From NCBI GenBank assembly GCA_026397175.1, contig JAPLVK010000022.1, positions 5,689-69,688 on the forward strand: DNA of 64,000 bases, written 5' to 3'. The DNA is from Candidatus Berkelbacteria bacterium. Lineage in GTDB: Bacteria > Patescibacteriota > UBA1384 > DTJR01. Below the pieces are notes generated by a model. The model saw only the letters and a list, made by a program, of their open reading frames with translations, was not told where the DNA came from and did not search any database. Below are positions 9,913-64,000 of the stretch, piece by piece (the first letter of the stretch is position 1; the number at the start of each line of letters is the position of its first letter). The position numbers and the translations under genes are program-made.

Positions 9913-9926
9913 AGGTTACAAATTTG

Positions 9927-10090: not shown

Positions 10091-10146
10091 ATCAATATCA
10101 TAAATATTGATATATTGCACTTTTAGTACGATCGTACTAAAAGTGC
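10091..10146. repeat. Two adjacent palindromes upstream of the 10298 gene, including a 30-bp CGATCG-core palindrome
   Basis: atcaatat-cataa-atattgat (10091-10111) and gcacttttagtacgatcgtactaaaagtgc (10117-10146). Confidence 0.6.
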
Positions 10147-10297
10147 ATAAGATCTAGGAGAGGATACATTAAAAAATGTTAATTTACGGAAATTTTAAAA
10201 TTTGATTTGAAACAAAAATTCTGTAGCTTGAAGTTGAAATTAAGAAGAGTAAGATATTAGATAATTAAGCAATCAACAAAGTCCTTTAGGAGGGATC

Positions 10298-15677: not shown

Positions 15678-16459
15678 CAGATCGGCCTCAAATTATTAAC
15701 GGCACTGACAAAAACCCTGGTCATCGCTTTGTTTTGATCTTGGGTCGCTAATGAATTATAGAAAAGGTCTTTAAGAGCAACGGAGTAAATTTGCGTTCCG
15801 ATTTGTCCCGATGGTCCGCCACCGTAAGAGCCGTTACCGCGAATGGTAAAAAATTTTGTAACATTTTTGTAGGCATCGCTTGGTGGGGTCTTGGCAGGAT
15901 CTATTGCAGCGCAATCGTTTGAATGAATTTTTTGGGGCGGATTGGCCGGATCGTTTATGGCGTCGGTTAAAATTGTTGCTGCTACTCCGCCAACCAAATA
16001 AGTATCGTCAATCGTACCTTCGATATCTTTTGCCAAATACATTTCCTTTCTTAAAGAAAAATAACCGTATTGTCCCGTAGCATCCTTTTTCTTAAAAACC
16101 ATATTGACCCAAACCATATATTTTCCATTGTCCAAAGTGGTATTGTCTGATTTTTCAAATGTTGCAAAACCAACGGACTGGCTGATATTTTTATCAATGT
16201 TGATAAACGAATATTTTGGATCCGCAAAATCAATCGCCACAATTCTGGAAGTGCCGAAATTGGCAGATCGAACCATCAAGTTGATATAATTCTCGGTTTG
16301 TTTGGCACACTCATTGGTTTTGGAAATGTCGGTGGTGAGTTCATTTGATTTTTTAATCATGGCAAAAGAAGCCGTCGCCATCACAATAACCATCATAAAA
16401 ATAAACGACGCAACCAGAATCTCAATAAGTGTAAAGGCCTTTGTTTTCATCTTTCCCAA
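15677..16459 (-). CDS. Prepilin-type pseudopilin (minor pilin)
   Basis: KAFTLIEILVASFIFMMVIV class-III signal, with Phe+1 and Glu+5. Confidence 0.6.
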   Translation of the reverse strand: MGKMKTKAFTLIEILVASFIFMMVIVMATASFAMIKKSNELTTDISKTNECAKQTENYINLMVRSANFGTSRIVAIDFADPKYSFINIDKNISQSVGFATFEKSDNTTLDNGKYMVWVNMVFKKKDATGQYGYFSLRKEMYLAKDIEGTIDDTYLVGGVAATILTDAINDPANPPQKIHSNDCAAIDPAKTPPSDAYKNVTKFFTIRGNGSYGGGPSGQIGTQIYSVALKDLFYNSLATQDQNKAMTRVFVSAVNNLRPI

Positions 16460-35380: not shown

Positions 35381-35455
35381 TGGTCGGCCCGGCAGGGTTC
35401 GAACCTGCGACATTTCGCTTATAAGACGAATGCTCTACCCCTGAGCTACGGGCCG
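35381..35455 (-). tRNA. tRNA-Ile(UAU)
   Basis: The reverse complement gives CGGCCCG-UA-GCUC-AGGGGUA-GAGC-A-UUCGU-CUUAUAA-GCGAA-AUGUC-GCAGG-UUCGAAC-CCUGC-CGGGCCG-A-CCA. The 7-bp acceptor is fully paired; the anticodon is UAU. Confidence 0.7.
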
Positions 35456-44456: not shown

Positions 44457-44819
44457 TTACATCCCCTTGTATTCCCATTTGATACTATCTGACGATTTTG
44501 TCTGATATTTATCGGCGGCAACACTAGGTTGAGCACCGTTAACCGAATACAACCAGAAGTCCTTATCGGTTGACTTCAGGTCGTCTATGCTATTTACCAT
44601 AACTCCAAGAGAACTATCTTGGGACTCAACCTGATGATTTGCTTTGAGAATATCGAAGGCCGTTTTCCCCTCTTCGCCTTGATACTCAATCGTTTTTTGC
44701 TCTATAGCAACAGCCGTTGGGTTTGTTGCGGCCTTTTTGTTGAAAGCGCAACCCGTTAATAACCCACCAAAAACAAGAACTGATACAAAGACAATTAATA
44801 CATTTTTCTTAAAATTCAT
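44457..44819 (-). CDS. Lipoprotein with DUF4430-like domain
   Basis: Lipobox LLTGC, then ...FWLYSVNGAQPSVAADKYQTKSSDSIKWEY. Confidence 0.5.
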   Translation of the reverse strand: MNFKKNVLIVFVSVLVFGGLLTGCAFNKKAATNPTAVAIEQKTIEYQGEEGKTAFDILKANHQVESQDSSLGVMVNSIDDLKSTDKDFWLYSVNGAQPSVAADKYQTKSSDSIKWEYKGM

Positions 44820-45144
44820 GATACTCCTCTGCTAATTATATTTTACCGAGATCTTTTCCGACAAGACAAATTTAATTTTTATGAGTAAGGCATTTTTCCT
44901 CCTCGGGATAAAGAACATGTTGGTTTTCCGACTTTACGGTAGCGGGACTGTGACGGTATTAAACCGCGCTTGCCCAAACATGTTGATTAGTTTGTATTTA
45001 CTACTTAAACAACAATAATCATAATTGTCAAACAGAGATCCTAACTCAAAGTTATACAGATTACAAAATGTTACATAACTTTTAATTAACTTACTTAACT
45101 TTGTTCGGGTACCTAATAAAACTTATATATTTTTGTTCTCTCAC

Positions 45145-46288: not shown

Positions 46289-47383
46289 CTATTCTTCCGA
46301 TAATTTAAATCTAAAAATTGAGATTGCTAGACAAACTAAAATCCATATCGAAACAATGACAATATTGACGGGATTGGCAAATGGCGAAGTACCATCGTTT
46401 GTAACCGCACGAAGCATTCTTAAAAGCGGGGCTAGGGGCAGATATTGTACAATCGAGTAAAGCCATTTCGGCAAAGTGTCAATCGGGAAGAAAACGCCAG
46501 CTAAAAACATCATTGGAATAGTAATGGCAGTTGCCATGCCTTGAGCCGCATCGGTGGTTTTTGAAAAACTTGAAACCACAAACCCCATAAGCTGAAAAAG
46601 CAAACCCCCGATTAAGGCGAGACCAAAAACTACAAAAATATTCCCGTAAATATGAACATCGAAAACATATTTCCCGATTATTACGATCGTTCCCACTTGA
46701 AACAAGTTAAGAATCAATCTAGACAATACCTCTGCCACGACGAAAATATAAGAAGGAAGCGGCGTGGTGGTGATTCTTTTTAAGATTTTGTCTTCTCGAT
46801 ATTTACTCATGCCGACAGCAATCCCTATAACCGAAGAGTTCATGAGCGCCAGCCCTAGAATTCCGGCGAAAACAAAGTCGAAATAAGTCAATGTTTTGTT
46901 TGATGTCTTTTCTTCAGAAATCTGAAAGATCGGCTTAGCGTTTTGAATCTGATAATTAGCTTGAGTCAAAAATTGGTTAACAAAACTGGAAATCACGGAG
47001 CTTGTTTGGGCATTAGCTTGGTCGGAAATAATGGTGATTGTTTTTGGTGCTTCTGGTGTGAGTAACCCAAAATTATTCGGTATGTAAACTATCGCAGCAA
47101 TTTTACTTTTTGCAATTTCGTCTTTAGCTACATTTACATCTTTTTCTTTTTGGATTTTAAAAATAGTGGCGTTTTGCAATGTACTGGAGAGATCTGTAGA
47201 AAGTTGAGTGTTTGAGTCATTAATTAACGCAACGGTCCCAACTGATGTGTTTTTGCCGAAGAATAACCCAAAAATAAAAGTAAATATAAGTGGAAACATA
47301 AAGGCCCAAAACAGCGCTTGCCTGTTTCTCGCCATCATCTTTAAATCAGCAATAAATAATTTTCTAAACATCTTACTCCGCAA
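46289..47383 (-). CDS. ABC-2 type transporter permease
   Basis: Six transmembrane segments; overlaps the ATPase gene by 11 bp. Confidence 0.75.
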   Translation of the reverse strand: MRSKMFRKLFIADLKMMARNRQALFWAFMFPLIFTFIFGLFFGKNTSVGTVALINDSNTQLSTDLSSTLQNATIFKIQKEKDVNVAKDEIAKSKIAAIVYIPNNFGLLTPEAPKTITIISDQANAQTSSVISSFVNQFLTQANYQIQNAKPIFQISEEKTSNKTLTYFDFVFAGILGLALMNSSVIGIAVGMSKYREDKILKRITTTPLPSYIFVVAEVLSRLILNLFQVGTIVIIGKYVFDVHIYGNIFVVFGLALIGGLLFQLMGFVVSSFSKTTDAAQGMATAITIPMMFLAGVFFPIDTLPKWLYSIVQYLPLAPLLRMLRAVTNDGTSPFANPVNIVIVSIWILVCLAISIFRFKLSEE

Positions 47384-48290
47384 TTGTTTTTCCGGTTAAC
47401 TCTATAAATACATCCTCTAGCGTGGCTCGACCAACCGTTAATAGTTCCGGATTGAATTTTTGAACAAGATTCACGACCGTATTTAGATCTTTTTGATTTT
47501 TAAGGCGCAAGTCGAACTGATTTTCTTTGCCAAAAGTGTTCTGAACCCTGGCGCAACACTTAACAATTTTAGCAAATATTTTTTTATCAATCTTGCTGGC
47601 CACAAAATTAACCGAAAACGGTTCTTTTACATTCTCTATTAATTTATGCGTTTCTCCCATCGCCAAAATTTTTCCTTTGTCCATAATCGCAATTCGATCA
47701 CATAGTAACTCCGCCTCTTCCATATAATGCGTAGTCAGAACAACTGTTTTGCCTTTGCTTTTAATCTGCGATACAAGACCCCAAAGATTTCTTCGTGCAA
47801 TCGGGTCAAGTCCGGTTGTCGGTTCGTCCAAAAATACAATTTCGGGATCATTAACTAAACTCGCGACAATCGAAAACCTCTGCCGTTGACCCCCGGAAAG
47901 CTTGCCTACAAACTGTTTTTTCTTTTCGGAAAGATCGACCATATTTAACAAATCGTCGGGATTGACCGATTTTTTGTAAAAAGAGCAAAAAAGATTTAAT
48001 ATTTCACTTAATGTTAGAAAATGAAAATAGGCAGACGACTGGAGCTGTACGCCAATTTTTTCTTTAATCGCGTTTACACTTTTTTCAACATGATGACCCA
48101 AGACCACGATACTGCCAGATGTGCCCTTCCTTAAGCCCTCGATAATCTCAAGTGTTGTGGTTTTGCCCGCACCGTTTTCGCCTAAAAGCCCGAAAACCTC
48201 GCCCTTTTTTACTTCAAATGAAATATCATTGACAGCATTAAGTGTCCCGTATTTTTTGACTAAGTTTTTGACTTCAATGACATTTTTCAT
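47373..48290 (-). CDS. ABC transporter ATP-binding protein
   Basis: Walker A GLLGENGAGKTTT, signature LSGGQRQR, Walker B VFLDEPT. Confidence 0.85.
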   Translation of the reverse strand: MKNVIEVKNLVKKYGTLNAVNDISFEVKKGEVFGLLGENGAGKTTTLEIIEGLRKGTSGSIVVLGHHVEKSVNAIKEKIGVQLQSSAYFHFLTLSEILNLFCSFYKKSVNPDDLLNMVDLSEKKKQFVGKLSGGQRQRFSIVASLVNDPEIVFLDEPTTGLDPIARRNLWGLVSQIKSKGKTVVLTTHYMEEAELLCDRIAIMDKGKILAMGETHKLIENVKEPFSVNFVASKIDKKIFAKIVKCCARVQNTFGKENQFDLRLKNQKDLNTVVNLVQKFNPELLTVGRATLEDVFIELTGKTIAE

Positions 48291-49488: not shown

Positions 49489-51435
49489 TCAAATGCCCAG
49501 ATCATATTCGTCATTTTCCCAGTACATTATTACGCCATAATTACCGCTCTCGGGATCATCTTCCATGTAATTTTCTTTTATTCGCGCAATTTTAAGTCCT
49601 CGTCCGGTGTAGAATCTGATGTCGGGATCGGCCAAATTATCCCCATCTTTTTGATTTACAAATTGCTCTATTGTCAGGCTCGGGTTATCATCTTTGGCTT
49701 TTTTGAAACCAGGTACCCTCGATCCGAGAAACAGATATTTCAAGTTCTTCTGTTTTACCAATTCTTTCTGTGCTTCGATTAAGGCTACCCCTATTCTGTT
49801 ACCTTTATATTGCGCTCTAACGCCTAGCGATACAACATAAAGTGAGTTGCCGTCTTTGTTATGTCCGCCCGTAATAGTTCCGTCCTCTGAATGTACAGGA
49901 CTAATGAACCCGTTATTCGTAATTTTCTCCCAGGATTCTACATCATCTGTTGGCTCAAAATTTGAAATTTCGGAAGTGCTGACTCCTGCAATAATTCCGA
50001 ACTCATAACCCAAAAAGAATCCTTCAGGAAAAACTTTCATTCGAGATTCAAATTTTTCTCTTGGCGCTCGAACTTCTTCGGGCCATGCCTCCTCCTCTGT
50101 TCGCATGACGCCTTCGAGTTGTTCGTTCGTTATAACCTCGTCTTTTGTGTTGATTGTTTCAATGCAAATTTGCTTCAGCTGCTGTAGCCAGTCTTTATAA
50201 CAATGACACTCCTTGTTTGTTGGGTCATTTTCCCAGCTTAAAAGCTCGTTATAGTCTCGCAAGAATGATTGCTGGTCCATATCGTGATTAAAGCTACTTA
50301 AAATTTCAATAACTTTTTCATTGCAATATTTACTGCCGGTGTCTGGATTCCCCCCTGTTACAATTGAGATTCCCTCTCCGCTCAAACCGACATGTAGACC
50401 CAAATAATCAAATACATTACTCTCGCCGTCTAAGATTCTGCCACAGAGTTGTTTGATCGTTTCTGCAATACTCCAGTACATCGGTGCTTTGTAGCTTCTG
50501 AACATATGAAGCAGTGAGTCTCTATATGTTCTCGTTGGTCCGAGAGAAACATGAGGTTTTAATTCGGGTTTCAAGTTAAGATCTTTTGATATTTGGGCTA
50601 CTTGTACCGCTGATTCAATAGCCGATTTTATCGCGAAGTTTTCGCTCATTAGTCCTGGCTTAAGCAGGATGTAGAAAAATGATCTGACATTTCTTTTGGC
50701 AAGATCATCTATTATTCCGCGCAGAGCCTCTTCGCTTATGCTTTTTCTTAATTGTTCTCCAATAATCTGGTCGGTGGTTTCAAGTCCGAAGGCAATCTCG
50801 AGTCGTCTTGTACCGCCATCGCTATTTAGCCACGCAAGAACTTCATCGACCTTATCTTGCGATTGAACAATGTCAGCAAATTTTGCTTCGACAGTCAGGA
50901 CAATATTTTTGGGTGAATTTTCTCTCACAACATCAATTATTCTTTTCCTTCCGTCAGCAGAAATCTCTTCGTCGCTAAAAAATGAGCCCGAGTTAAAAAT
51001 TTCGATAATATCAATATGCTCACTCTCGAATTGAAATGAGGGACGCACTGTATTCATAGCATCTACCATCTGCTGCTCATACTGTTCTGGTGTAACGGGG
51101 TTTCCTCCAGTTGAGTAATTTTCGCTAAATACGCAAAATGCACAATTTGGGTATTCGTTAGATTCTGCGTGTGAACGACGCTTGGAACAACCGGGTGATT
51201 TTAATAAAATCGATGCTCGTCTGGCGGGTTGTCCATCGAGTGTTGTTAGGCCCCCAGTGTCAACGAAAAATGGTTTCGACACCTCTCGGGCATACATTTC
51301 AGGATTTTCTCTCGCATCTCTGGCAAGTTTAGCCGCGTCGCCCTTGTGTTCATAAACCTGCGCTATCTTTTCAGGAGCCCGAAAATCGATCCCTACATCT
51401 CCATACTCATTTTGACTTTCGACATCTGAACCCAT
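49489..51435 (-). CDS. Elp3-like radical-SAM plus GNAT (KAT) domain protein
   Basis: C-x14-C-x2-C (CSKRR...PNCAFCVF) then NYSTGGNP. IEIFNSGSFFSDEEI parallels the Elp3 'IELIIMGGTFPARDIE' motif, and ...FFYILLKPGLMSE parallels 'HLMPGMPG'. The C-terminus YKGNRIGVALIEAQK...FYTGRGLKIARIKENYMED is a GNAT motif A like the Elp3 KAT tail. Confidence 0.5.
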   Translation of the reverse strand: MGSDVESQNEYGDVGIDFRAPEKIAQVYEHKGDAAKLARDARENPEMYAREVSKPFFVDTGGLTTLDGQPARRASILLKSPGCSKRRSHAESNEYPNCAFCVFSENYSTGGNPVTPEQYEQQMVDAMNTVRPSFQFESEHIDIIEIFNSGSFFSDEEISADGRKRIIDVVRENSPKNIVLTVEAKFADIVQSQDKVDEVLAWLNSDGGTRRLEIAFGLETTDQIIGEQLRKSISEEALRGIIDDLAKRNVRSFFYILLKPGLMSENFAIKSAIESAVQVAQISKDLNLKPELKPHVSLGPTRTYRDSLLHMFRSYKAPMYWSIAETIKQLCGRILDGESNVFDYLGLHVGLSGEGISIVTGGNPDTGSKYCNEKVIEILSSFNHDMDQQSFLRDYNELLSWENDPTNKECHCYKDWLQQLKQICIETINTKDEVITNEQLEGVMRTEEEAWPEEVRAPREKFESRMKVFPEGFFLGYEFGIIAGVSTSEISNFEPTDDVESWEKITNNGFISPVHSEDGTITGGHNKDGNSLYVVSLGVRAQYKGNRIGVALIEAQKELVKQKNLKYLFLGSRVPGFKKAKDDNPSLTIEQFVNQKDGDNLADPDIRFYTGRGLKIARIKENYMEDDPESGNYGVIMYWENDEYDLGI

Positions 51436-51447
51436 TTTTCTGCTCCG

Positions 51448-52290
51448 TTATCTTTCCTTAATCATTTGTTTACCTCTAATCCTTGGCGAAAAGTTTTTGC
51501 CGGTAACTACGCTTTTCCCAGTTTTGTTTTCGAGGGCTTTTCTTGCGTCTTTCGCAATTTTACCACCTTTTTTGGCTGGAATCTTATTTTCTTCCAATCC
51601 TTTTGTTTTGTCTGTCTCGGCGATTCGTCTTGTTGAAAGTTCGGCAAGCGCGGTGAAGATCAATTCTTCTTCGCTCATATGATCTCGCAGATTTTGCGTT
51701 TTTAAGCCCTTCAAATTCTTGTGATCTTTGACGGATAAATCGCTCCATTCTTTGTGAATAATATTCGTCAATATTGCAAATTCTTCGCCCTCTTTTACTT
51801 CGTGATCAGCCCAATAATCAGTCAATTTGTTTCTGGTCTCATGCCCAGTCATCCGTTGCTGAATCCACTTTTGGCTTCGGCCCATTTTCTGCCAATAACT
51901 CCTTGATCTATCTAGTGCTTTTTCCGGATCTGCCATTTCTTGTATTCTCTCGTAACCAGTTTTCGCTAGCCACAATTTAAATGGCTCGGCTTTTTTACTC
52001 GGGACTGACTGAATGATTCTAAATATTTGTTCTGTACTGCCTGCCAAAGTTTTTCTTTTTTTCCCTGTCTCTGTGACCATTTCTACCTGGGGACAATTTG
52101 TCCCTATGTAATGCCCGACCTCGAAGTCCCTTTTGCGAAGCTTTTTGAGATAGTCGGTTGGATTTATACTATCGGTAAGTGCTGCGATAATATCAATTAC
52201 CGAAAAATACCATGTTTCGGTTTTTTCGTCATAATACCGACGAATTTTGAAGCTTTCGAAAATAGCTAATGAATTTTGTTTAATTTTCAT
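51448..52290 (-). CDS. DinD-like (DNA-damage-inducible protein D family) protein
   Basis: ...HETRNKLTDYWADHEV...NLRDHMSEEELIFTALAE resembles the E. coli DinD conserved core. Confidence 0.6.
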   Translation of the reverse strand: MKIKQNSLAIFESFKIRRYYDEKTETWYFSVIDIIAALTDSINPTDYLKKLRKRDFEVGHYIGTNCPQVEMVTETGKKRKTLAGSTEQIFRIIQSVPSKKAEPFKLWLAKTGYERIQEMADPEKALDRSRSYWQKMGRSQKWIQQRMTGHETRNKLTDYWADHEVKEGEEFAILTNIIHKEWSDLSVKDHKNLKGLKTQNLRDHMSEEELIFTALAELSTRRIAETDKTKGLEENKIPAKKGGKIAKDARKALENKTGKSVVTGKNFSPRIRGKQMIKER

Positions 52291-52294
52291 ATTT

Positions 52295-53245
52295 TCAATT
52301 CTTCAATTTTTTTAAATTAAATTTTGTGATTTCTTTGCGCACGATTTTTTCCATTTCTTTGTGTGATATTTTACCTTTACTCGATAATATTTCCAATTTA
52401 TTTGCCTTAAGCATATTGTCAAGATAAGAATCCCAGTCCTTCATATACATAACATTTTGGCGCTCAATCTGAAATTCAGCATAAGAAAGAAATTGCTCAA
52501 CCAGTAAATAAAGTTGGCGAAGCTCTGTTTCAAGCATATAATTTTTGGCGATCTCTGCTTCTTGTCTCGTTACGGAAACTTTTTTGTAATTGGTCATACC
52601 AAGATTTTCTTTTCTGCTGTCAATCCGATTAACAACTAATTCGGCGGCAGTTTTGCCTGTTATGGCATGGTGAAATTTATTCTGCATAGCAGCATAAAAC
52701 TTTTTTGTATAATCGGCTTTAGTATCATAGTCCGCACTGGTTGAAAAAATATCTTTGACTTTTTCGTATAAATTTCTTTCCGAAGCGCGAATCTTTCGGA
52801 CGCGCTCCAGCATCTCACCAAAATATCCTCGTTTGTAGCCGCCGTTTGCTAGCCGCTCATCGTCCATAACAAATCCTTTGACAATATATTCTCGCAGGGT
52901 CTTTGTCGCCCAAATACGGAATTGCGTACCCCGAAAAGATTTTACCCGATAGCCAACGGAAATAATTACATCGAGATTATATTGCTCGATTTCACGAATT
53001 ATTTCCCTTGGTCCCTCTTTTTGAACTATCCGGAATTTCCGGACAGTTGGAACCCTACTTAGTTCTCCTTCACTAAAAATATTTTTAATGTGTTCGTTTA
53101 CAGTTTTAACATCTTTCTCGAATAGTTCAGCCATCTGTTTCTGGGATAACCAAACTGTCTCGCCGGTCATCCGAACTTCAATTTGAGTTGAACCGTCTTC
53201 AGTTTTATAAATAATGACTTGGTTTTTCTTGCTAGATTCTTTCAT
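52295..53245 (-). CDS. RhuM-family protein
   Basis: VRKFRIVQKEGPREIIREIEQYNLDVIISVGYRVKSFRGTQFRIWATKTLREYIVKGFVMDDERLANGG is a close match to the RhuM signature. Confidence 0.75.
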   Translation of the reverse strand: MKESSKKNQVIIYKTEDGSTQIEVRMTGETVWLSQKQMAELFEKDVKTVNEHIKNIFSEGELSRVPTVRKFRIVQKEGPREIIREIEQYNLDVIISVGYRVKSFRGTQFRIWATKTLREYIVKGFVMDDERLANGGYKRGYFGEMLERVRKIRASERNLYEKVKDIFSTSADYDTKADYTKKFYAAMQNKFHHAITGKTAAELVVNRIDSRKENLGMTNYKKVSVTRQEAEIAKNYMLETELRQLYLLVEQFLSYAEFQIERQNVMYMKDWDSYLDNMLKANKLEILSSKGKISHKEMEKIVRKEITKFNLKKLKN

Positions 53246-53404
53246 TTACACTCTCTCTGCGCGCCATCCGTGATTTTAATGTAAGATGGATGATTTTTAT
53301 TATAAAAATTCCTTATCGCCCGTCTGCAAAAGCTTTGCTTTAGCTAATGCGGGCAGGCTAATTATTAGGGTAAAAGCGTAGCATCCCCCTCCCAAAAACT
53401 GCCA

Positions 53405-53737
53405 TCAAGTTCCCTTTCTTGCTAAATAATTAAATGCATAAAAATAATTTTGCCATGATTTGTCGGTGGATTGATATTGGTTTTCGAAAAACCAATCGGC
53501 TAAAACCTCGCGCATTCGGCAGAGTTCACGCAATTGTTTTTTATTTTTCGGATCGAGCCGTGTTATGTCAATCAGCTCCAAAGCGCGCTCGAAAGCAAGC
53601 TGCGAATATTCTAAATCATTTTTATTTTTCCAGATAATCGTTCGCTCCACTTCACTGCCGATATTGGCCATTTGCTCGGCTAACGATTTAGAAAACCATT
53701 TTTTTTCTGTTAAGTCCTTATGATAAAAAAGATTCAT
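53405..53737 (-). CDS. Hypothetical helical protein (partner of a DUF protein)
   Basis: 110 aa; start overlaps the stop of the upstream gene (ATGA). Confidence 0.35.
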   Translation of the reverse strand: MNLFYHKDLTEKKWFSKSLAEQMANIGSEVERTIIWKNKNDLEYSQLAFERALELIDITRLDPKNKKQLRELCRMREVLADWFFENQYQSTDKSWQNYFYAFNYLARKGT

Positions 53738-54075
53738 TTTTGAACTATTTTGTTAACAACTATAATTATCTTTTCGCGAATTTTTGGATCGTCAACCGAT
53801 CTTGTTCGATTGCCTTGTGAGGGGCGCAAGTTAACCATCGAATCAAATTCGATAAATTCCTCGCCGGTTTTTTCGGGATACAAATTTATTCCCCAAAGAT
53901 TTTGTTGTTTCGAACCATTTTGAAGCAGTAATTCTTCTTCGTCACTATGCATTCCCGCGTCAACAGCCATAACCTCTTTCTCAATATCAACAACCGCCTT
54001 AATCAAAGTGCCAAACATATCCTCGGCCATCTTTTTTAATTCGCTAAGTGATATATTATCTTCAATTATTTTCAT
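53734..54075 (-). CDS. Conserved small protein of unknown function
   Basis: MKIIEDNISLSELKKMAEDMFGTLIKAVVDIEKEVMAVDAGMHSDEEELLLQNGSKQQNLWGINLYPEK... Confidence 0.4.
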   Translation of the reverse strand: MKIIEDNISLSELKKMAEDMFGTLIKAVVDIEKEVMAVDAGMHSDEEELLLQNGSKQQNLWGINLYPEKTGEEFIEFDSMVNLRPSQGNRTRSVDDPKIREKIIIVVNKIVQK

Positions 54076-54189
54076 AAATTAATATTTACCTCACCTTAAG
54101 CTTCCCATAAATCAAGAAAAAAATAAAGTCCAAGCATCGGTTCTAATTTTGCAACTTTAAAAATTCACTCATTTTCCCTTTCTCCCCTG

Positions 54190-54217
54190 CACTTTTGAGA
54201 CGATCGTCTCAAAAGTG
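54190..54217. repeat. 28-bp perfect palindrome (CGATCG-core family), left bracket of the PaaX-like gene
   Basis: cacttttgagacgatcgtctcaaaagtg. Confidence 0.7.
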
Positions 54218-54262
54218 TATGCCTCAAACCTGTATTTACTTGCTAGTTTTTATAATATGAGA

Positions 54263-54841
54263 TTAAAGATCGAATTTATTTTTAAGATATTCTTCACAAT
54301 CAATCTTGGAAAGTTCTCCGTAATTAACAAATTTTTCAACTTCAAAGACCGAACTAATAAAAGATATCTCATCCTCGCACTTATAGGGGCAAACCCAAAC
54401 ACTTTTTTGCAATTTGACAAAACCGATTTCTATCAATTTACTTCTCAAAATATTTCTAGCAAATCGGAGTTTTTCGGGAATATCAAAAAATACTATTCTC
54501 CATTTGCCATCCCATTTATGTTTATTAATCGAAATAGCATCAATGTCATAATCCACTAACCTTACCTTACCTTTTTGTGTAATTTTAATAATTGTTTTGC
54601 CTTTTCGATAGGTAATCTGAACAAATCGGTCCTTAATTATTTTCTCGAGTGATTTATCAACTGCTTCATCGCCGTGTTTCTTGCGCAGCTTGTTCAGTTT
54701 GGGAATAAATTTTGAAAGCCCATAAGGAGAAGTCAAGGCAACACCGATTACCAAACCAATCAGCACCACTTCCAATACCAATTTTGCTACCTCAACGAAA
54801 ACTTCTTTTTCATATTTGGTAAGCCGAACCTTTGAACTCAT
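54263..54841 (-). CDS. PaaX-C/Cas2-fold domain protein with N-terminal transmembrane helix
   Basis: WDGKWRIVFFDIPEKLRFARNILRSKLIEIGFVKLQKSVWVCPY resembles the PaaX C-terminal (Cas2/VapD-like) domain. ATG at Met-13 of the ORF-track ORF; the track's GTG start would sit inside the palindrome. Confidence 0.5.
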   Translation of the reverse strand: MSSKVRLTKYEKEVFVEVAKLVLEVVLIGLVIGVALTSPYGLSKFIPKLNKLRKKHGDEAVDKSLEKIIKDRFVQITYRKGKTIIKITQKGKVRLVDYDIDAISINKHKWDGKWRIVFFDIPEKLRFARNILRSKLIEIGFVKLQKSVWVCPYKCEDEISFISSVFEVEKFVNYGELSKIDCEEYLKNKFDL

Positions 54842-54872
54842 ATACTTAACATTATCACTAATTTGAATCCTC

Positions 54873-54906
54873 TGCACTTTTGAGACGATCGTCTCAAAAG
54901 TGCAGG
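54873..54906. repeat. 34-bp perfect palindrome (extends to about 40 bp imperfect), right bracket of the PaaX-like gene
   Basis: ctgcacttttgagacgatcgtctcaaaagtgcag. Confidence 0.7.
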
Positions 54907-55232
54907 CAGAGGGTGTATCTTTATTACGCTGAATCTCGGAAAAATAAATTTAGAGAACTGATTTTTGATAACCCCGAGCCAAAGGATTCCCCTTGGGGAA
55001 GAGGACCCTTGGGGCATTTTTATGGTTCGCTCCGCCGGCTGGCGGATTTAGGATGAAAAAAAATTTATCCTATGATTCGTTGATAATATTTTTCGCCCAT
55101 TCGACTCGCTTCGCTCGTTCAGGATGAAAGTTGTCTTTATAATACCGATTTCTGGTAGCAACTTTCGCCCTTCGACAAGCTCCCTCCTTCGCTAAAGCTA
55201 CGGAAGGGCAAGCAGAGTGAATCTTGCTCGTG

Positions 55233-56954
55233 TTATATCACTTCTTTTTGGTAGCAAGATTCACAGTAAACTTTTTCCGGTCTTTCGGGTGCATAGGTGG
55301 TTTCGAATTCGTTGGGGCAGTGGCCAGAATGATCGTGGCCAGGCAGATCGCACATGCATTGGCGGTGATACAAAACCCGCGGATTGCGCAGTTTAAATAA
55401 TTCTTTGTATCTCACCTCGGAATGTTTAGTTGGCACGGGAATTCTCTGTCTTATATAAAACGCCAACTCTTGCGGCATGATTTTGAACGGTTTTCCCGAC
55501 TTTTCACATTTCAAAACTCCCGCCAGCAATTTTTTAACTTCTTCGTCTGAATTTATGTAATCATCAATTGAATCTTTTGGCTCGTAGGCTTCGCCTTTAT
55601 AATCAGGATTGTATTCTTTGTCCTGCCACTTGCCGCCAATTTTCTCGGCTTCTGCCTTGGTTTTGGGATGATAAATATTAGCCATTGTTTCGTTGTAACC
55701 AAACAAAGACATTTTCATCGGGCAAAACTCTCCCCACTCGCCGTCTTTTTGCATTCGCTCAATTATTTTTGGCACCAATTTATCATATTCTTCCTTGGTA
55801 TACTGTTTATTCAAAATACAATGCTGCTTGTGATTAATCCCGATACAGCCAAAACAATTTGAGCAGTAATCAATAAAGTTACAATACAAATTACTGTCTC
55901 CGTAGGCGGTCCAGACACTAAAACGGTTTTTGTAACCAGCGTTGCTTGTCCCGTCGTAACAGAGTTCCGCTTCGGTAATATAATCGAGGTCGCGGCAATC
56001 CTTGCTATCAGCATCAATATTGGTGATCCTGACACAATTTTGGCTTTTATAGGCGTTAAAACACTTTTTGCAGTCTTTACATTCAATTAAATAATCACCT
56101 GTGCAGTTTTCTGTTTTGACATTGTTGTTTTCTTTGTGAATCGCCTTGAGCATGCCTTCGCCGGATCTCTTTTTGTATTCTTCGACCACCGATCTTCTGC
56201 CAAAATCAATTTCCTTTAATTTCTTTTTGTATTCTTCTTCGGAGTACTCTTTGTTTTCAATGCAATATTGCTTATTGTGTAAACCCGCACAAAGCAAAAC
56301 ATTGTTGCACCCTCGGCAGTCGTAAGAAAAATAAGATTCGGAGCAATTCTCACAATGCTCTAAATACATTGAATTATGGCAATGATCGCAGTCAAAACAA
56401 TGGTAGCAATATTCACAATTTCTAATATCAAAACAATCAATGCAGTCCTTAGTATAAAAAGTTTCGGTGCAGTAATAGCATCTTTCCGCATAGCCAGCAT
56501 TAAAACAAAGATACGAATCCTTCGTCTGCCAAGTTTGATTGCAAAAATTACTGTTCTCAACGATGGTAGTATTGTTGGCCTGACGCGGAACGGCTAGTAA
56601 AAGTTCATTAAACTGCTCAAAAAATGACTGGTTGAAATCGAATTCACGGCCGAAGCTCATTGGATCCCAGTCGTCGGATCTCCAGACAGAATTTTTATAA
56701 ACCTTGTAGGGCTTGTCCGGAGAATAAACCGAGACAATTTCCTCGCCTGTTTTATCACATTTTCTTTTATAAAGTGAGCGCTCGTTTCTCCAGCAGAGTC
56801 GCCTGATTTGTCGGCAGGTGTAGCAAAGTTTTGGGGCATCAATTTTATAAACCCGCCCATTCAAAACCGGACTAATTTTTTCCAGAAACGCCAAATCATC
56901 ATCGCTAACGACAAATTCTTGTCCACATTGTTTGCAAGTTTTATTTTCTGCCAT
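55233..56954 (-). CDS. Cys-rich repeat protein with duplicated terminal zinc-ribbon-like domains
   Basis: N-terminus CKQCGQEF...ELAFLEKISP...CYTCRQIRRLCWRNERSLYKRKCDKTG...VY. The C-terminus repeats this pattern (KCEKSGKPFKI...ELAFYIRQRIPVP...CESCY). The middle has more than 12 C-x2-C units about 12-13 aa apart. Confidence 0.45.
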   Translation of the reverse strand: MAENKTCKQCGQEFVVSDDDLAFLEKISPVLNGRVYKIDAPKLCYTCRQIRRLCWRNERSLYKRKCDKTGEEIVSVYSPDKPYKVYKNSVWRSDDWDPMSFGREFDFNQSFFEQFNELLLAVPRQANNTTIVENSNFCNQTWQTKDSYLCFNAGYAERCYYCTETFYTKDCIDCFDIRNCEYCYHCFDCDHCHNSMYLEHCENCSESYFSYDCRGCNNVLLCAGLHNKQYCIENKEYSEEEYKKKLKEIDFGRRSVVEEYKKRSGEGMLKAIHKENNNVKTENCTGDYLIECKDCKKCFNAYKSQNCVRITNIDADSKDCRDLDYITEAELCYDGTSNAGYKNRFSVWTAYGDSNLYCNFIDYCSNCFGCIGINHKQHCILNKQYTKEEYDKLVPKIIERMQKDGEWGEFCPMKMSLFGYNETMANIYHPKTKAEAEKIGGKWQDKEYNPDYKGEAYEPKDSIDDYINSDEEVKKLLAGVLKCEKSGKPFKIMPQELAFYIRQRIPVPTKHSEVRYKELFKLRNPRVLYHRQCMCDLPGHDHSGHCPNEFETTYAPERPEKVYCESCYQKEVI

Positions 56955-57508
56955 TATATTCTTTTATACTCTTTTTCTAATCCAAGTTTTTTTACCCATT
57001 CGTTTATATAATCGTTATCCACTTTCGAAATCTCTAAAATTGATTTAATATCATCCGCGTGTCGGCTGGAATTGTCTTTTTGCATCCACTGAAGTTTGGA
57101 AATTATTAAATCCTCCGGGGAAATAAATCTAACTTCGCGGCCAATATCTTTTTTAATTGATCTTCTTAGTCGCAGTTTATCATAATCTTTGTTATAGACA
57201 ATCCAAAAATCAATTTTCATTCCGATATTTGGTTCTATAATATTGAACTCACCATTATTTTTTAGAGCATCTCTCATTTGAAGAGGATCTATATACGCAT
57301 CTGGAAATTCACTTTTTAATTTGCCGGCGAGCTGATCGATATTTTTTTCTTCGAGATGAATAACTAAATCAATATCTGCTGTAAACCGAGGTTTTCCCCA
57401 AACAGATACTGCAAAACCTCCGCTAACAAAAAAATCGATTCTTAAATTATTTAAGATTTCTGCGATTTTATTTAAGAGGTCTGTTGGGGTTTTGGGTTGT
57501 TTTTGCAT
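56954..57508 (-). CDS. Minimal nucleotidyltransferase (Pol-beta-like NTase fold) protein
   Basis: GGFAVSVWGKPRFTADIDLVIH matches the hG[GS]x9-13Dh[DE]h motif. Its stop overlaps the next ATG as TAATG. Confidence 0.6.
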   Translation of the reverse strand: MQKQPKTPTDLLNKIAEILNNLRIDFFVSGGFAVSVWGKPRFTADIDLVIHLEEKNIDQLAGKLKSEFPDAYIDPLQMRDALKNNGEFNIIEPNIGMKIDFWIVYNKDYDKLRLRRSIKKDIGREVRFISPEDLIISKLQWMQKDNSSRHADDIKSILEISKVDNDYINEWVKKLGLEKEYKRI

Positions 57509-57645
57509 TTGAAAAATTTGGGGTTAACTTTTTTTGCGTACGCAAAAAAACCGTTTAGCATTTCGAGTTTTTCAGTAGCCGTTTTTCCCTTGATTACCGA
57601 CATATAAAATTTATCGGCTTTAGAGGTTGCGCTTTTTTTCTTCAT
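57472..57645 (-). CDS. Small basic protein overlapping the NTase start
   Basis: MKKKSATSKADKFYMSVIKGKTATEKLEMLNGFFAYAKKVNPKFFKCKNNPKPQQTS; 37-bp overlap with the NTase start. Confidence 0.3.
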   Translation of the reverse strand: MKKKSATSKADKFYMSVIKGKTATEKLEMLNGFFAYAKKVNPKFFKCKNNPKPQQTS

Positions 57646-57754
57646 ATTGTTTAAAGTTTCCCACAAACCACTTGAAAAATAAAGCATAACCAAACTCCAC
57701 CCGCCGGGTGGAGTTTTAAGGGTTTTGATTGATCTGTTTAAAATTTAAATTTAT

Positions 57755-60224: not shown

Positions 60225-61196
60225 CTAGATGATCGCGCGAATTGCTTCGAGCGTTGAGAGTTGCTCGTCGGGGATGACATTGCCGAACACATTGTTCAGC
60301 ACTGTTACCACCCCAGTCGGAGCAACTCCATTGCGGGAGATACAGTAGAGGAAACCCTTCGGGAAGGTCTTCACTTGGACGAAATATTCGGTCGGCGGGA
60401 AAACCATCCCAACCAAACGGTTCAGACCAACCTGGTCAAACCAGTTGGAGAGGAAAAAACCTCCTTGATCTTTACGAACACCGACGACCTGCAGACCAAT
60501 GATGTCTGGCCTCTGGACTAGTTGTCTTGCGGTGCAAGATATCAGTTCTAACTTGAACTCCTCCAGCGCGACCGAATCCAAGTCCGCGCTAAGTTCCATG
60601 CCGGTCTCGATTCGGGAGATCTCCTGGCCGTTGAAAGTCAGGTAGTCGAACCAGAAGTTGTCGCCAAGAATCTCGCGGTTGGCAATGTACTCGTCGAACC
60701 CAGCATTCGGGTAGCCGTGATCAGGGTTCGGGAGGAAGAAGGCCTTAACATCATACACACCCATAATCAGAGTGCGATTGGCGGGTGGAACACCGCCGGC
60801 GATATCGAGGATCGCTCCGGGATGGTAGCTGATATCAGCGCCACATTCCTGACACTTGGCCAGAGTATGGCTCTTGGCCGTTGCGAGCAGATTCGGCGAC
60901 AGGTCGTTGAAGAAAACATTGACCAATCCTCTGTTCGGCGGCTTGCAGGGATCACATCCGGAGCAGATGGCCTGCTTAAAGATCATCAGCGGATCTCGGC
61001 AACCAACCGCTCCACCAAATGTTACAACATTCGAGATACCAGGGATTCTCCTGCAAATCTCGATTACAGCGTCCATCTCACCTGCGTTGTCGACCGTCAT
61101 GTCGGCGGTCTCGTAGATATCAAACTGCCGATCCCAAAACTTGAGTTGGCCCGCCCTATCAAGGGCGGGCTTTCGCCAGGAACACGGGTTTGCCAT
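60225..61196 (-). CDS. Hypothetical GC-rich protein with Cys cluster (possible class-I methyltransferase-like fold)
   Basis: ...VVTFGGAVGCRDPLMI... is Gly-rich and SAM-loop-like; CSGCDPCKPP...CQECGAD. Start at MANPCSW; the ORF-track start abuts the tRNA. Function not recognised. Confidence 0.4.
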   Translation of the reverse strand: MANPCSWRKPALDRAGQLKFWDRQFDIYETADMTVDNAGEMDAVIEICRRIPGISNVVTFGGAVGCRDPLMIFKQAICSGCDPCKPPNRGLVNVFFNDLSPNLLATAKSHTLAKCQECGADISYHPGAILDIAGGVPPANRTLIMGVYDVKAFFLPNPDHGYPNAGFDEYIANREILGDNFWFDYLTFNGQEISRIETGMELSADLDSVALEEFKLELISCTARQLVQRPDIIGLQVVGVRKDQGGFFLSNWFDQVGLNRLVGMVFPPTEYFVQVKTFPKGFLYCISRNGVAPTGVVTVLNNVFGNVIPDEQLSTLEAIRAII

Positions 61197-61227
61197 AGTG
61201 AACGCCTCCTTGGATTGGTGGAACATT

Positions 61228-61303
61228 TGGCACGCCGGCGGGGACTTGAACCCCGAACCTTCGGTTTTGGAGACCGCTACTCTGCCAATTGAGCTACCGG
61301 CGT
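61228..61303 (-). tRNA. tRNA-Trp(CCA), copy 1
   Basis: ACGCCGG-UA-GCUC-AAUUGGCA-GAGU-A-GCGGU-CUCCAAA-ACCGA-AGGUU-CGGGG-UUCAAGU-CCCCG-CCGGCGU-G-CCA; discriminator G73. Confidence 0.8.
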
Positions 61304-61309
61304 GTTTTC

Positions 61310-61777
61310 CTACGCTGATAAGTCACTGATGATTGGGTCAGCGACAAGTAGCAGGTCAGAGAACTTAATCTTCAAGCTCGATGTCCTTTGTCCGAGGCCG
61401 CAGTAAACGGTTTCGGAATCTATCGAAGAGTCGAATGCGGTTACGAGTTGAAGCCCAAACGGCGGGATTGCTCCGATTTCCACATTCAGACGGTCTTGTA
61501 CCTCTTGGGTCGTGGCCAGATCAACCTGGGATCTCGATAGTCCGAAAGCTTTTGCTGCTTTGGATCGTGAGATTCGTTTGTCGCCTGGCAATACAGCTAA
61601 CAGCAAATTGCCGGATCGCTTGTCCTTGAGAATGATGGCCTTAACCATCTGGACATATTCTATGCCCAGCACTCGAAAAACATCATCCGTTGTTATGACC
61701 GCTTCGTGATCAATAACCTCAAACGGCAGGTTACGGTCAGTGAGGATTGCTATCAGTTTGTTTTTCATGATGATCAC
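61310..61777 (-). CDS. YbaK/ProX-family aminoacyl-tRNA deacylase-like protein
   Basis: 155 aa. ...VKAIILKDKRSGNLLLAVLPGDKRISRSKAAKAFGL...EIGAIPPFGL is typical of the YbaK/ProX trans-editing fold. Confidence 0.65.
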   Translation of the reverse strand: MIIMKNKLIAILTDRNLPFEVIDHEAVITTDDVFRVLGIEYVQMVKAIILKDKRSGNLLLAVLPGDKRISRSKAAKAFGLSRSQVDLATTQEVQDRLNVEIGAIPPFGLQLVTAFDSSIDSETVYCGLGQRTSSLKIKFSDLLLVADPIISDLSA

Positions 61778-61786
61778 AGGTTAAAA

Positions 61787-61862
61787 TTGGCACGCCGGCG
61801 GGGACTTGAACCCCGAACCTTCGGTTTTGGAGACCGCTACTCTGCCAATTGAGCTACCGGCG
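61787..61862 (-). tRNA. tRNA-Trp(CCA), copy 2
   Basis: Identical to copy 1 except for acceptor position 1 (G1·U72 rather than A1-U72). Confidence 0.8.
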
Positions 61863-61873
61863 CGCAATTCTAC

Positions 61874-62872
61874 CTAGAACCGTATCAGTCCGACTTTGGT
61901 CCGGACTTCCTCGAGTGTTTCTGTGGCACTTTCGCGCGCCGTGATTCCTCCTTGGTGCAGAACATCGCGCACGAGGTTCTTTTGTCGCGCGAGTACTTGT
62001 CGCCTTTCTTGCATCGGTGCCAGCATGCTAATGACCGCGCTAGCAAAGCAGTCCTTGCACTCAACACAGCCAATTTGGGCATTCTCACAAACCGGTATGA
62101 TGTCTTGGGCGGCTTTATCGGCTCCCAAGACATGCTCCTGTAGTACATAGAGATTACACTCCCAGGGATGTCCCGAGTCGGTGCGTCTCTCACGCTTGGG
62201 GTCTGTGAGGGCATTGCGGCACTTCTGTCTGATAATCTCCTCTGAATCAGTCAGGGCGATTGTCGCACCCGAGGACTTACTCATCTTGCCTTCGCCCCCT
62301 AAGCTCGGGACACGGATGTCCTTGCCGGAAAGCTTCTTGGGGATGGGAAAGGTCAAACCGAATTTGGCGTTGAAGCTCCGGGCCAGATCGCGAGCTATCT
62401 CGAGATGAGGCAGTTGATCTTCACCGACAGGAACGACATTGGCCTTCTGGATGAGAATATCGGCCGCCATAAGTATCGGGTAGGTCAGAAGACCCGTGTT
62501 GATGTTGTCCGGTTGAGACGCCGCTTTTTCCTTGTAGGTAGGGCAACGCTCGAGCACAGAAACCATCATGAGGTTGGACAAAATCCAACTCAATTCAGGG
62601 ATCTGCGGGACAGACGACTGGGCGAAGATGACCGCCTTTTCCGGATCAAGTCCAGCAGCAAGATAGTCCAGTACAAGTTCTCCAAGGTTGTCGCGTAGCT
62701 CGGCCGGGTTAGTTAGCGTCGTCAACGAATGCCAATCAGCCACAAAGAAGTGGCAGTTGTATTCGTCTTGCATCTGGACGAAGTTTCGGATTGCGCCCAG
62801 ATAGTTCCCGAGATGCACATTGCCGGTGGCGCGGATACCCGACACCACAATTGGTTTCAAACTGGTCTCCAT
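61874..62872 (-). CDS. trpS: Tryptophanyl-tRNA synthetase with C-x22-C-x6-C-x2-C motif
   Basis: GNVHLGNYLGAIRNF (HIGH-type) and KMSKS. The insert CNLYVLQEHVLGADKAAQDIIPVCENAQIGCVECKDC has the same Cys spacing as the [4Fe-4S]-binding TrpRS of Thermotoga. Confidence 0.9.
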   Translation of the reverse strand: METSLKPIVVSGIRATGNVHLGNYLGAIRNFVQMQDEYNCHFFVADWHSLTTLTNPAELRDNLGELVLDYLAAGLDPEKAVIFAQSSVPQIPELSWILSNLMMVSVLERCPTYKEKAASQPDNINTGLLTYPILMAADILIQKANVVPVGEDQLPHLEIARDLARSFNAKFGLTFPIPKKLSGKDIRVPSLGGEGKMSKSSGATIALTDSEEIIRQKCRNALTDPKRERRTDSGHPWECNLYVLQEHVLGADKAAQDIIPVCENAQIGCVECKDCFASAVISMLAPMQERRQVLARQKNLVRDVLHQGGITARESATETLEEVRTKVGLIRF

Positions 62873-63069: not shown

Positions 63070-64000
63070 CTACAAGATTGGTGCCGAGAAGTTTTCGTCT
63101 TTGAGTTTGTCGAGGACTTCCAGCTCTTTAGATTTTTCGCGTGAAATTTCCCGCTCGGCCTCGGCTTTATTGATACAATAATTCGCGCGCGAGTTTGCGA
63201 CAATTTGTTCTTTAAATGAAGTTGTAACTTCGGGAACGGTCAGTGTTTTGGCGGAGAAGGCCTCTTTGACCTCTTCGTCAATTGAAAGTTTGAGATAAAT
63301 TTCGCGAACACCCAAATTTGTAATATCAATGGCTTTAAATCGCGGCTCAAATTCTTGCTCCAAAAGCGCGGCATCCTCCGGCCCGATTCTAAAGGAGATG
63401 ATCGAGCCGACATTTCCAAAAACCGTTTTGCGAATAACTTCTGAAAGCTGCGAAACATATTGATGAGACATGGTCAGCGATAATTTATATTTCCTTGATT
63501 CTGACAAGATGTTTGAAAATGATTCGGTGGCAAAGTTTTGAAACTCATCAACATTAAGATAAAACGGCACGCGTTGATTTTCAGCAACATCGGCGCGAGC
63601 GAGCGCGGTTTGATAAATTCTGGTGATCAACATCGCGCCCAAAAGAGAAACATTTTCTTCGCCCAAAATCCCCTTCGGCAATTTAACCAGAAGGATCTTT
63701 TTGTTATCCATAATATCTTTGAGCACAACTTTATTTTCTTCTTGACCGACAATATTTCGAATCAGAGCGTTTGAAACAAACTGGCCGATTTTATTTAAAA
63801 TCGGCATAATCGCTTCGGAGTCAAACTTTTCCGACCAGCCGGCAAATTCGTTGGTCCAGAAATTTTTAACAACTTGATCTTCGATCGTTTTGATAATTTC
63901 TTGACGATATTCTCGGTCGGTTAAAATAAGCAAAATTGACATAACCGAGGCCTTGGGCGCGTCAAGCAAAGCCAAAAGCGTCATTCTTAAAACATGCTCG
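63070..64000 (-). CDS. C-terminal part of a HerA/TraG/VirD4-like (DUF87/AAA-like) ATPase; N-terminus beyond the window
   Basis: ...VPFYLNVDEFQNFATESF... resembles the Walker-B/DEFHxL region of DUF87/coupling-protein ATPases. The ORF is still open at 64000. Confidence 0.35.
   Translation of the reverse strand, partial: EHVLRMTLLALLDAPKASVMSILLILTDREYRQEIIKTIEDQVVKNFWTNEFAGWSEKFDSEAIMPILNKIGQFVSNALIRNIVGQEENKVVLKDIMDNKKILLVKLPKGILGEENVSLLGAMLITRIYQTALARADVAENQRVPFYLNVDEFQNFATESFSNILSESRKYKLSLTMSHQYVSQLSEVIRKTVFGNVGSIISFRIGPEDAALLEQEFEPRFKAIDITNLGVREIYLKLSIDEEVKEAFSAKTLTVPEVTTSFKEQIVANSRANYCINKAEAEREISREKSKELEVLDKLKDENFSAPIL

Follow-up and report, generated by a model that had tools for sequence, protein, structure and literature searches.

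Nine same-strand genes in a Candidatus Berkelbacteria genome, two of them from defence-candidate families, are probably a mosaic of independent transcription units

Do neighbouring genes with defence-like annotations, read from the same strand of a compact bacterial genome, belong to one system? The question is raised by an 8-kb stretch of DNA (49489-57693) that lies within a 64,000-nucleotide piece of the contig JAPLVK010000022.1 (hereafter, the window, to which the coordinates refer unless another contig is named). The source is a metagenome-assembled genome (MAG) of a Candidatus Berkelbacteria bacterium, a member of the candidate phyla radiation (CPR), and three of the proteins encoded in the window are identical to NCBI entries NTZ65_04475, NTZ65_04490 and NTZ65_04505. 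A preliminary description had read the stretch as a co-directional island of stress and defence genes that might form a novel system. Its gene inventory and spacing were reproduced by the present analysis, with nine open reading frames (ORFs), all on the minus strand. Its interpretation was borne out only in part: the nine genes probably fall into four independent transcription units, a mosaic within a variable region of the Berkelbacteria genome, rather than one system.

The four proposed units are here called A to D in the direction of transcription. Unit A (57.69-55.23 kb) would consist of a small ORF, an AbiEii/DUF6036-type nucleotidyltransferase (NTase) and one Cys-rich zinc-ribbon protein from a family that is usually found in tandem. 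Unit B would be a membrane-anchored winged-helix/PaaX_M protein with flanking palindromes, most simply explained as a regulator that comes with operator-like sites of its own. Unit C, a DUF5674 protein and a 110-residue helical-bundle partner, is a conserved CPR pair whose role is likely to be cellular and not in defence. Unit D (53.25-49.49 kb), with a RhuM gene, a Bro-N/DinD-like gene and a radical S-adenosylmethionine (radical-SAM) plus GNAT fusion, appears to be the only truly accessory segment of mobile-element type.

The neighbourhoods of homologues were fetched and searched with all nine proteins, and there is no conserved linkage between the modules. These co-occurrence tests split the stretch into independent modules. 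Gaps of 355, 187 and 159 bp separate the units. A hairpin (57692-57716, minus strand), terminator-like with an 11-bp stem, lies just downstream of the aminotransferase gene and marks the upstream edge of unit A. Three of the modules (the Cys-rich family, the DUF5674 pair and PaaX_M) are large families that occur CPR-wide in housekeeping neighbourhoods, a distribution that does not fit one island or one novel system of nine genes.

All nine genes do share a strand, as first described. However, in the segments 5.6-35 kb and 43.8-64 kb nearly every gene is on the minus strand, so the co-directionality of the stretch is not special and carries no island signal. Base composition is likewise mostly ordinary: GC content overall and at third codon positions (GC3) is within about one standard deviation of the window mean for the RhuM, DinD-like, radical-SAM/GNAT, Cys-rich and DUF5674-pair genes. 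Only the NTase (z = -2.0), which has the highest AT content in the window, and the PaaX-like gene (z = -1.7) are outliers towards AT, and the real compositional outliers lie outside the stretch, at 2.0-3.6 kb and 60.2-62.9 kb. Same-strandedness and GC content were therefore rejected as island signals.

The case for defence comes from unit D. The first gene (52295-53245, minus strand) encodes a full-length, 316-residue RhuM-family protein that matches PF13310 at 3.3e-97 (325 bits against a cutoff of 33.7, positions 2-248 of 252) and several of the PDC-S05 models of PADLOC (best 2.2e-128), the two signatures that together define PDC-S05 membership. It is followed after 4 bp by the gene for a 280-residue Bro-N/DinD-like protein (51448-52290, minus strand), which carries the defining match of PDC-S13 in PADLOC (1.7e-115, positions 3-273 of 286) and also matches Bro-N (9.2e-08, 33 bits against a Pfam cutoff of 25.6) and phrog_15286 (7e-97); an NCBIfam scan of this protein gave no match. 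Since PDC-S05 and PDC-S13 are single-gene candidates in PADLOC, both proteins are recognised defence candidates, and PADLOC would most likely report them as two separate ones. They are the only two of the nine genes in families listed as candidate anti-phage genes.

This assignment bears out the suggestion that RhuM and DinD-like proteins are defence-associated families, which is also reflected in the genomic company they keep elsewhere. RhuM genes are enriched beside invertible type I restriction-modification (R-M) loci (PMC9881135), and RhuM has been proposed to be a toxin domain that stands, in R-M/PrrC loci, where DOC toxins are otherwise found (PMC3710099). Homologues of the DinD-like protein are found between cas4 and cas1 of a type I-B locus, between phage portal and capsid genes, and in a ParA-ParB-RepA-TraG backbone. 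The companion statement, that no recognised complete defence system is present, is not fully correct, since RhuM and the DinD-like protein are each single-gene candidates in PADLOC.

The PDC sets comprise 145 untested candidates nominated through “guilt-by-embedding” (bioRxiv 10.1101/2024.01.29.577857). One PDC-S05 gene on its own has since been reported to lower plating efficiency 10-1000-fold, by about 1,000-fold for T7 and T5, in E. coli B (bioRxiv 10.1101/2024.09.26.614923). The RhuM gene of the window resembles PDC-S05 in being a single gene whose product has a DNA-binding-type region at the N terminus and the RhuM domain at the C terminus. It differs in lying outside the R-M, BREX or DISARM context that nominated the family, as no component of these systems was found near it among the ORFs of 43.8-64 kb with Pfam and/or PADLOC; such embedding is not required for the PADLOC call. 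It also differs in its host, a CPR bacterium. By analogy with its family, RhuM may act as a single-gene, toxin-type anti-phage effector. The DinD-like protein shares with PDC-S13 and phage antirepressor-like Bro-N proteins a near full-length match and homologues in phages, plasmids and a cas operon, and it would accordingly be a DNA-binding regulator or effector derived from a mobile element. What sets it apart is that its gene is flanked by RhuM on one side and a radical-SAM enzyme gene on the other, as in none of the other contexts examined.

These other contexts speak against a partnership of RhuM and the DinD-like protein. The DinD-like gene is absent from all 22 RhuM loci on viral contigs, about half of which have less than 1.4 kb of downstream sequence. 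Conversely, RhuM is not adjacent to the DinD-like gene in three viral loci, in a CPR relative (contig L009) or in three annotated plasmid loci. In these 29 contexts (22 of RhuM, seven of the DinD-like gene), the partner is thus never adjacent, and the radical-SAM/GNAT gene never occurs. That the two genes might encode duplicated domains was also considered and ruled out, as there is no detectable similarity between the proteins.

The last gene of unit D (49489-51435, minus strand), 12 bp downstream of the DinD-like gene, encodes a 648-residue fusion of a radical-SAM region (residues 66-329, TIGR01210-like) and a GNAT domain (residues ~440-645). It had been described as “Elp3-like”. The order of the domains, radical-SAM and then GNAT in one polypeptide, is indeed that of Elp3, but the likeness is one of architecture only: Elp3 models, such as ELP3 of NCBIfam and Radical_SAM_C of Pfam, did not match at E<=0.01 in Pfam and NCBIfam scans. 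The N-terminal half aligns instead with the RaSEA model of archaeosine synthesis, TIGR01210 (6e-23, 234 of 313 positions), and keeps the three invariant cysteines C83, C98 and C101 (Cx14CxxC). However, its 81.5 bits are far below the cutoff of 212.15, there is no ArcS partner, and fusions of this kind are very rare. For the GNAT half, the likeness is to stand-alone GNATs of about 200 residues and, weakly, to the GNATs of CurA/GphF loading modules, the sole match in a PDB sequence search. Going by its domains, the protein could be an Elp3-style radical acyl-transfer enzyme that acts on a nucleic acid or a small molecule.

Only eight homologues of this fusion were found in 5.8 billion clusters. 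In a HMMER scan of 1.84 billion representatives, full-length fusions make up a handful of clusters, and most of the matches listed are stand-alone GNATs of about 200 residues or radical-SAM proteins of about 330 residues. RhuM and the DinD-like gene are absent from all four other contexts of the fusion (L051; L054-56; L057), two of which are beside large serine recombinases. In one of these CPR contigs (L054, 4460-21968), the homologue near the recombinase is followed by an abutting B12-binding radical-SAM gene, a KAP NTPase and TraG/TraC-like genes; in the other (L057, 4980-17855), the homologue, also near a large serine recombinase, is followed by Peptidase_S51, HhH-GPD, DUF4365 and HD genes. 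Judged from these contexts, the fusion appears to be independent cargo of mobile elements. The three genes of unit D, although probably co-transcribed, may thus be stacked single-gene cargo, each most likely acting alone.

Unit A begins with the small upstream ORF, which runs to 57472 on the minus strand and could have 73 residues from a TTG at 57693 or, more likely, 57 residues from an ATG at 57645 (5' end, 57643-57693). It overlaps the start of the NTase gene (56954-57508, minus strand), and the same ORF precedes the NTase in the Logan contig L006. The NTase has 184 residues and matches AbiEii (PF08843, 4.2e-09, 37.1 bits against a cutoff of 22.5) and DUF6036 (3.8e-06), with an intact GG...DID motif. 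In these respects, an AbiEii-type NTase with a GG...DxD motif and a small ORF upstream, it resembles the AbiE type IV toxin-antitoxin system. However, it is shorter than the AbiEii family (184 residues against a 238-position profile), and its downstream partner is a Cys-rich CPR protein. PADLOC found no AbiE match for the NTase or its neighbours, and there is no AbiEi antitoxin gene adjacent. The NTase would then be an AbiEii-like enzyme without its antitoxin. The small ORF, which has no family match, could conceivably be an antitoxin-like partner.

The NTase overlaps by 1 bp the gene for the Cys-rich protein (55233-56954, minus strand; 573 residues, hereafter Cys573), a module that had been noted correctly in the preliminary description, as had the 4-bp gap between RhuM and the DinD-like gene, the overlapping two-gene cassette of unit C and the palindromes that bracket the PaaX_M gene. 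Cys573 belongs to a family of more than 6,900 homologues that is found CPR-wide, with several paralogues per genome and a second copy in this one. Its AlphaFold2 (AF2) model shows zinc ribbons at either end and a pair of repeats that are Cys-rich and resemble a beta-helix (predicted local distance difference test score, pLDDT, 84; predicted template modelling score, pTM, 0.84). No significant fold match was found in the PDB, a PDB sequence search returned nothing, and there was no match in Pfam, NCBIfam or PADLOC.

Elsewhere, genes of this family form tandem arrays, with five copies beside gatCAB on contig L058, seven on L060 and two on L059. The arrays on L060 (8192-21725), L058 (518-15146) and L087 (5180-10330) contain up to seven paralogues of about 570 residues. 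On L060 and L087, a two-component system and a VirD4/TraG-like gene are found upstream of the array, which borders on the DUF5674 pair; this arrangement recurs in CPR bacteria. It is an unlikely possibility that the Cys-rich arrays and the DUF5674 pair constitute a CPR-specific functional unit.

The DUF5674 pair itself forms unit C. The DUF5674 protein (53734-54075, minus strand; 113 residues, PF18924 at 3.5e-37) is encoded first and overlaps by 4 bp the ORF for its 110-residue partner (53405-53737, minus strand; hereafter p110). The two genes stand directly next to each other, in the same order, in five of five distinct contexts (the window, L060, L087, L090 and L092), with the genes for ribosomal proteins L19 and L27, AspRS, NUDIX and ClpB proteins as neighbours. 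RhuM, the DinD-like gene and the radical-SAM/GNAT gene are absent from the four contexts outside the window. The p110 family has 3,576 homologues at 60-85% identity in Berkelbacteria, Levybacteria, Moranbacteria, Falkowbacteria and others. Its AF2 model is a plain four-helix bundle (pLDDT 95) with only generic helical-bundle or FliS-like structure matches, and family scans of p110 gave no match.

A type II toxin-antitoxin pair was considered for unit C and rejected: the overlap is present, but p110 is a generic four-helix bundle, conservation is high and the contexts are of a housekeeping kind. Neither PADLOC nor Pfam gave a toxin match for either protein. Since the pair is strongly conserved, at 60-85% identity, a cellular role fits better than that of an arms-race gene. 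Both Cys573 and the DUF5674 pair look resident and typical of the lineage, because they are adjacent in other Berkelbacteria-like contigs and occur CPR-wide.

Unit B lies between these two resident modules. Its gene (54263-54841, minus strand) encodes 192 residues from an ATG, or 204 residues from a GTG at 54877; an exact look-up of the 192-residue product found no record, possibly because the start was called differently. The only domain matched is PaaX_M (Pfam, 4.9e-22); a membrane helix is predicted at the N terminus of the protein, which may also have a winged-helix segment. It had been called a PaaX/Cas2-fold gene, and the central Cas2-like PaaX_M domain is shared with the PaaX repressor. 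However, it lacks the N- and C-terminal PaaX domains, its score against the PaaX model TIGR02277 is 27.6 bits against a cutoff of 264, and no paa genes were found among the ORFs scanned near it. It is no closer to being a Cas2, as the Cas2 models are below their cutoffs (PF09827, 18.9 against 23.8; TIGR01573, 22.9 against 24.5) and there are no cas genes and no CRISPR array between 43 and 64 kb. The N-terminal membrane helix distinguishes it from both. Searches with tblastn returned only actinobacterial fragments of true PaaX from plasmids and nothing from phages, and viral contigs scanned with the PaaX-like protein and the palindrome pattern yielded nothing.

The gene is bracketed by two copies of a perfect, zero-loop palindrome of 34 nt, CTGCACTTTTGAGACGATCGTCTCAAAAGTGCAG, one at 54872-54905, 31 nt upstream of the ATG, and the other at 54186-54219, 44 nt downstream of the stop codon and about 110 nt upstream of DUF5674. 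Shuffled sequences gave no matches to this pattern. The window holds two more zero-loop palindromes of this family (9922-9959 and 10116-10147), whose intergenic members are 32-44 nt long and share an invariant CGATCG centre. The outer arms of the one at 10116-10147 equal those of the PaaX-flanking copies, and this near-identical palindrome lies about 150 nt upstream of a gene at 10298. The arms differ symmetrically between copies, all of which were ascertained as palindromes. On other contigs, a related palindrome (L051, 351-394) is found between a divergently transcribed gene and tRNA-Glu, and another (L090, 10327-10362) overlaps the stop codon of p110. A PaaX_M homologue on L090, 30% identical, is also bracketed, by its own, different pair of palindromes of this CGATCG-centred kind (15240-15284 and 15845-15890). 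Palindromes therefore bracket both of the two PaaX_M genes examined, a sample far too small for a rule.

The 327-nt intergenic region between Cys573 and the upstream palindrome (54906-55232) is part of a segment (54830-55235, which also takes in the palindrome and the start of the PaaX-like gene) that folds more stably than shuffled sequences (z = -5.85). An Rfam search of 53.2-55.3 kb at E<=1 gave no match. The word CGATCG was considered as a HIP1-like enriched word or as one avoided because of R-M, and both were dismissed, with 21 sites observed against 16±4 expected.

What might the palindromes do? It is conceivable, if some way short of probable, that the PaaX_M protein is a local regulator, a dimer of which binds both palindromes and controls its own gene and the DUF5674-p110 operon; this would be compatible with the mosaic. 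Such a role would fit the position of the identical 34-nt copies upstream of both genes, the bracketing of the L090 gene, the only other one available, the outer-arm copy upstream of the gene at 10298, and the L051 copy between divergent promoters. However, just two PaaX_M genes can be compared, the downstream copy of the L090 pair is in a convergent intergenic region rather than a promoter, the symmetric arm changes fit selection for a hairpin or cruciform as well as they fit operator co-evolution, and a predicted membrane helix is a point against such a regulator.

A broader reading is unlikely, namely that CPR PaaX_M proteins are the cognate partners of long CGATCG-centred palindromes, with each gene bracketed by its own pair, either as a regulator-operator cassette that moves between genomes or as a counterpart of repetitive extragenic palindromic (REP) elements, with hairpin DNA as the substrate of a Cas2-fold protein. 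REP elements with their RAYT genes and the cyanobacterial HIP1 (GCGATCGC) offer a likeness in their dispersed intergenic palindromes with a CGATCG core and in a gene flanked on both sides. The differences are that there are four copies in 64 kb, that the flanked gene is not a transposase, and that these palindromes are 32-44 nt long with variable arms.

The assembly is independently supported for two parts of the stretch. Logan assemblies from seven independent runs reproduce the part from DUF5674 to the Na/Ca exchanger (L001) and the NTase-Cys573 part (L006), so these parts are not a chimera of the MAG. The PaaX segment (54216-55193) is outside the coverage of those contigs: L001-L004 start within the palindrome at 54186-54219, and L006 and L007 (two runs) stop at about 55194.

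That the region is variable is suggested by its relatives. Searches with the flanking genes gave two 64% matches to the aminotransferase on genome contigs and one 52% match to the exchanger on a 2.7-kb metagenome contig. On L009, whose aminotransferase is 64% identical, the dehydrogenase-aminotransferase pair leads into ProRS, then a DinD-like gene (58% identical), then a high-GC gene; on L093, a cold-shock gene and a serine-recombinase fragment come after the exchanger, which is 52% identical. Because these contigs carry other genes at the flanks, the stretch is not conserved synteny. The neighbourhood is one that attracts accessory genes, and ordinary synteny decay is possible at the 52-64% identity of the flanking genes. 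The high-GC gene of L009 (6495-10466), which adjoins the DinD-like gene in this low-GC CPR relative, is an ORF of 1,323 residues that we take from its sequence to be FGAM-synthase-like.

Signs of mobility around the stretch itself are few. As had been noted, there is no integrase or transposase: no Pfam recombinase or transposase domain was found in the ORFs scanned over 43.8-62.9 kb, with three (46289-47383, 47373-48290 and 63070-63984) scanned by PADLOC only. There is no tRNA flank and there are no bounding direct repeats around the stretch, no CRISPR or tandem array at 43-64 kb, and no further PADLOC match in the flanks over the same range, apart from generic cross-matches of ABC ATPases.

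How well does the mosaic stand against the alternatives? Several observations weigh against it. With gaps of 4 and 12 bp, co-transcription of the RhuM, DinD-like and radical-SAM/GNAT genes is almost certain and would be consistent with a joint function. One coding sequence with dinD and RhuM domains has been described within a type I R-M locus (PMC9881135), and a Haliscomenobacter plasmid carries both RhuM and DinD-like genes, about 5.7 kb apart, so the two families do keep company. RhuM-DinD adjacency could, moreover, have been missed, because of the short downstream sequence at about half of the viral RhuM loci, and the comparison for the radical-SAM/GNAT gene rests on four contexts. Units A and C may be linked beyond chance, because a 50%-identical NTase precedes the Cys-rich array on L059 and Cys573 is directly upstream of DUF5674-p110 on L060 and L087. 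Finally, the closest relatives are so distant (52-64% identity of the flanking genes) that the gain or loss of the stretch cannot be dated. It is nevertheless quite improbable that unit D is a new three-gene defence operon, in which the parts might be, for example, a sensor that binds DNA, a toxin as effector and an enzyme that modifies nucleic acids for self-protection or signalling. Besides the tight spacing, the PADLOC candidacy of two members and the reported fusion, such an operon would be in keeping with the radical-SAM/GNAT homologues being cargo of recombinase- or conjugation-bearing elements beside DUF4365, KAP NTPase and HD genes. However, none of the four other contexts of the radical-SAM/GNAT gene has RhuM or the DinD-like gene, in the 29 contexts of RhuM or the DinD-like gene there is neither an adjacent partner nor a radical-SAM/GNAT gene, tight spacing is the norm in this compact genome, and PADLOC defines both candidates as single genes, with one RhuM gene protective alone.

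The whole stretch from 49.5 to 57.7 kb might instead be a single flexible island that arrived in one piece at a hot spot whose borders are the Na/Ca exchanger and the aminotransferase. The different flank content of L009 and L093 and the AT-rich NTase and PaaX-like genes speak for such an island, which is rather improbable given the lack of an integrase, tRNA flank or bounding repeats, the ordinary composition of most genes, and the lineage-typical character of Cys573 and DUF5674-p110, which look resident rather than imported; relatives at 52-64% identity are too distant to tell an island from loss of synteny. At the other extreme, the stretch could be conserved housekeeping synteny with no accessory character, as might be argued from the wide conservation of DUF5674-p110 and Cys573 in the CPR, beside translation genes. 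This is very improbable: the flank contexts differ between relatives, the three genes of unit D are typical mobile-element cargo and are absent from all five other DUF5674-p110 or Cys573 neighbourhoods, and for unit D the idea is already contradicted. The mosaic of four units is the reading that we prefer, and the activities and any anti-phage effect that we infer for their products come from the protein families.

Other parts of the window have features of their own. The segment at 60225-62872 has about 53% GC in a window of 41% GC (gene GC3 z ~+3) and holds a 333-residue ORF without a Pfam or PADLOC match, a tRNA-Trp(CCA), a YbaK-type tRNA_edit gene, a second tRNA-Trp and TrpRS. The two near-identical tRNA-Trp genes form an 87-nt direct repeat (94%), and the segment looks like a horizontally acquired TrpRS/tRNA-Trp block. 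The second compositional outlier, at 2002-3636, is a plus-strand gene of 544 residues with 54% GC and a GC3 z of +3.1. The region at 9300-9900 (46% GC) contains a doubtful 137-residue ORF, ends in a strong GC-rich hairpin (9872-9901) and may be an unrecognised RNA gene; an Rfam search of 9.2-10.35 kb at E<=1 returned noise only. A tRNA-Ile with the UAU anticodon, which is uncommon in bacteria, is found at 35381-35455. An AdoCbl-II riboswitch (44914-44984; 40.3 bits, above the gathering score) lies upstream of a DUF4430 gene (44457-44819), which is probably involved in cobalamin-related uptake.

The main value of these results is negative: a compact genome can place “defence-flavoured” annotations next to each other on one strand without these amounting to a system. 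Three of the families that had drawn attention here, Cys573, DUF5674 with its partner, and PaaX_M, are CPR-typical genes. Three by-products may deserve closer attention: a very rare radical-SAM/GNAT fusion as mobile cargo, two very large, uncharacterised CPR families, and PaaX_M genes bracketed by palindromes. CPR bacteria are thought to carry few defence systems, and an intact RhuM (PDC-S05) and Bro-N (PDC-S13) gene in a Berkelbacteria chromosome add modestly to that picture.

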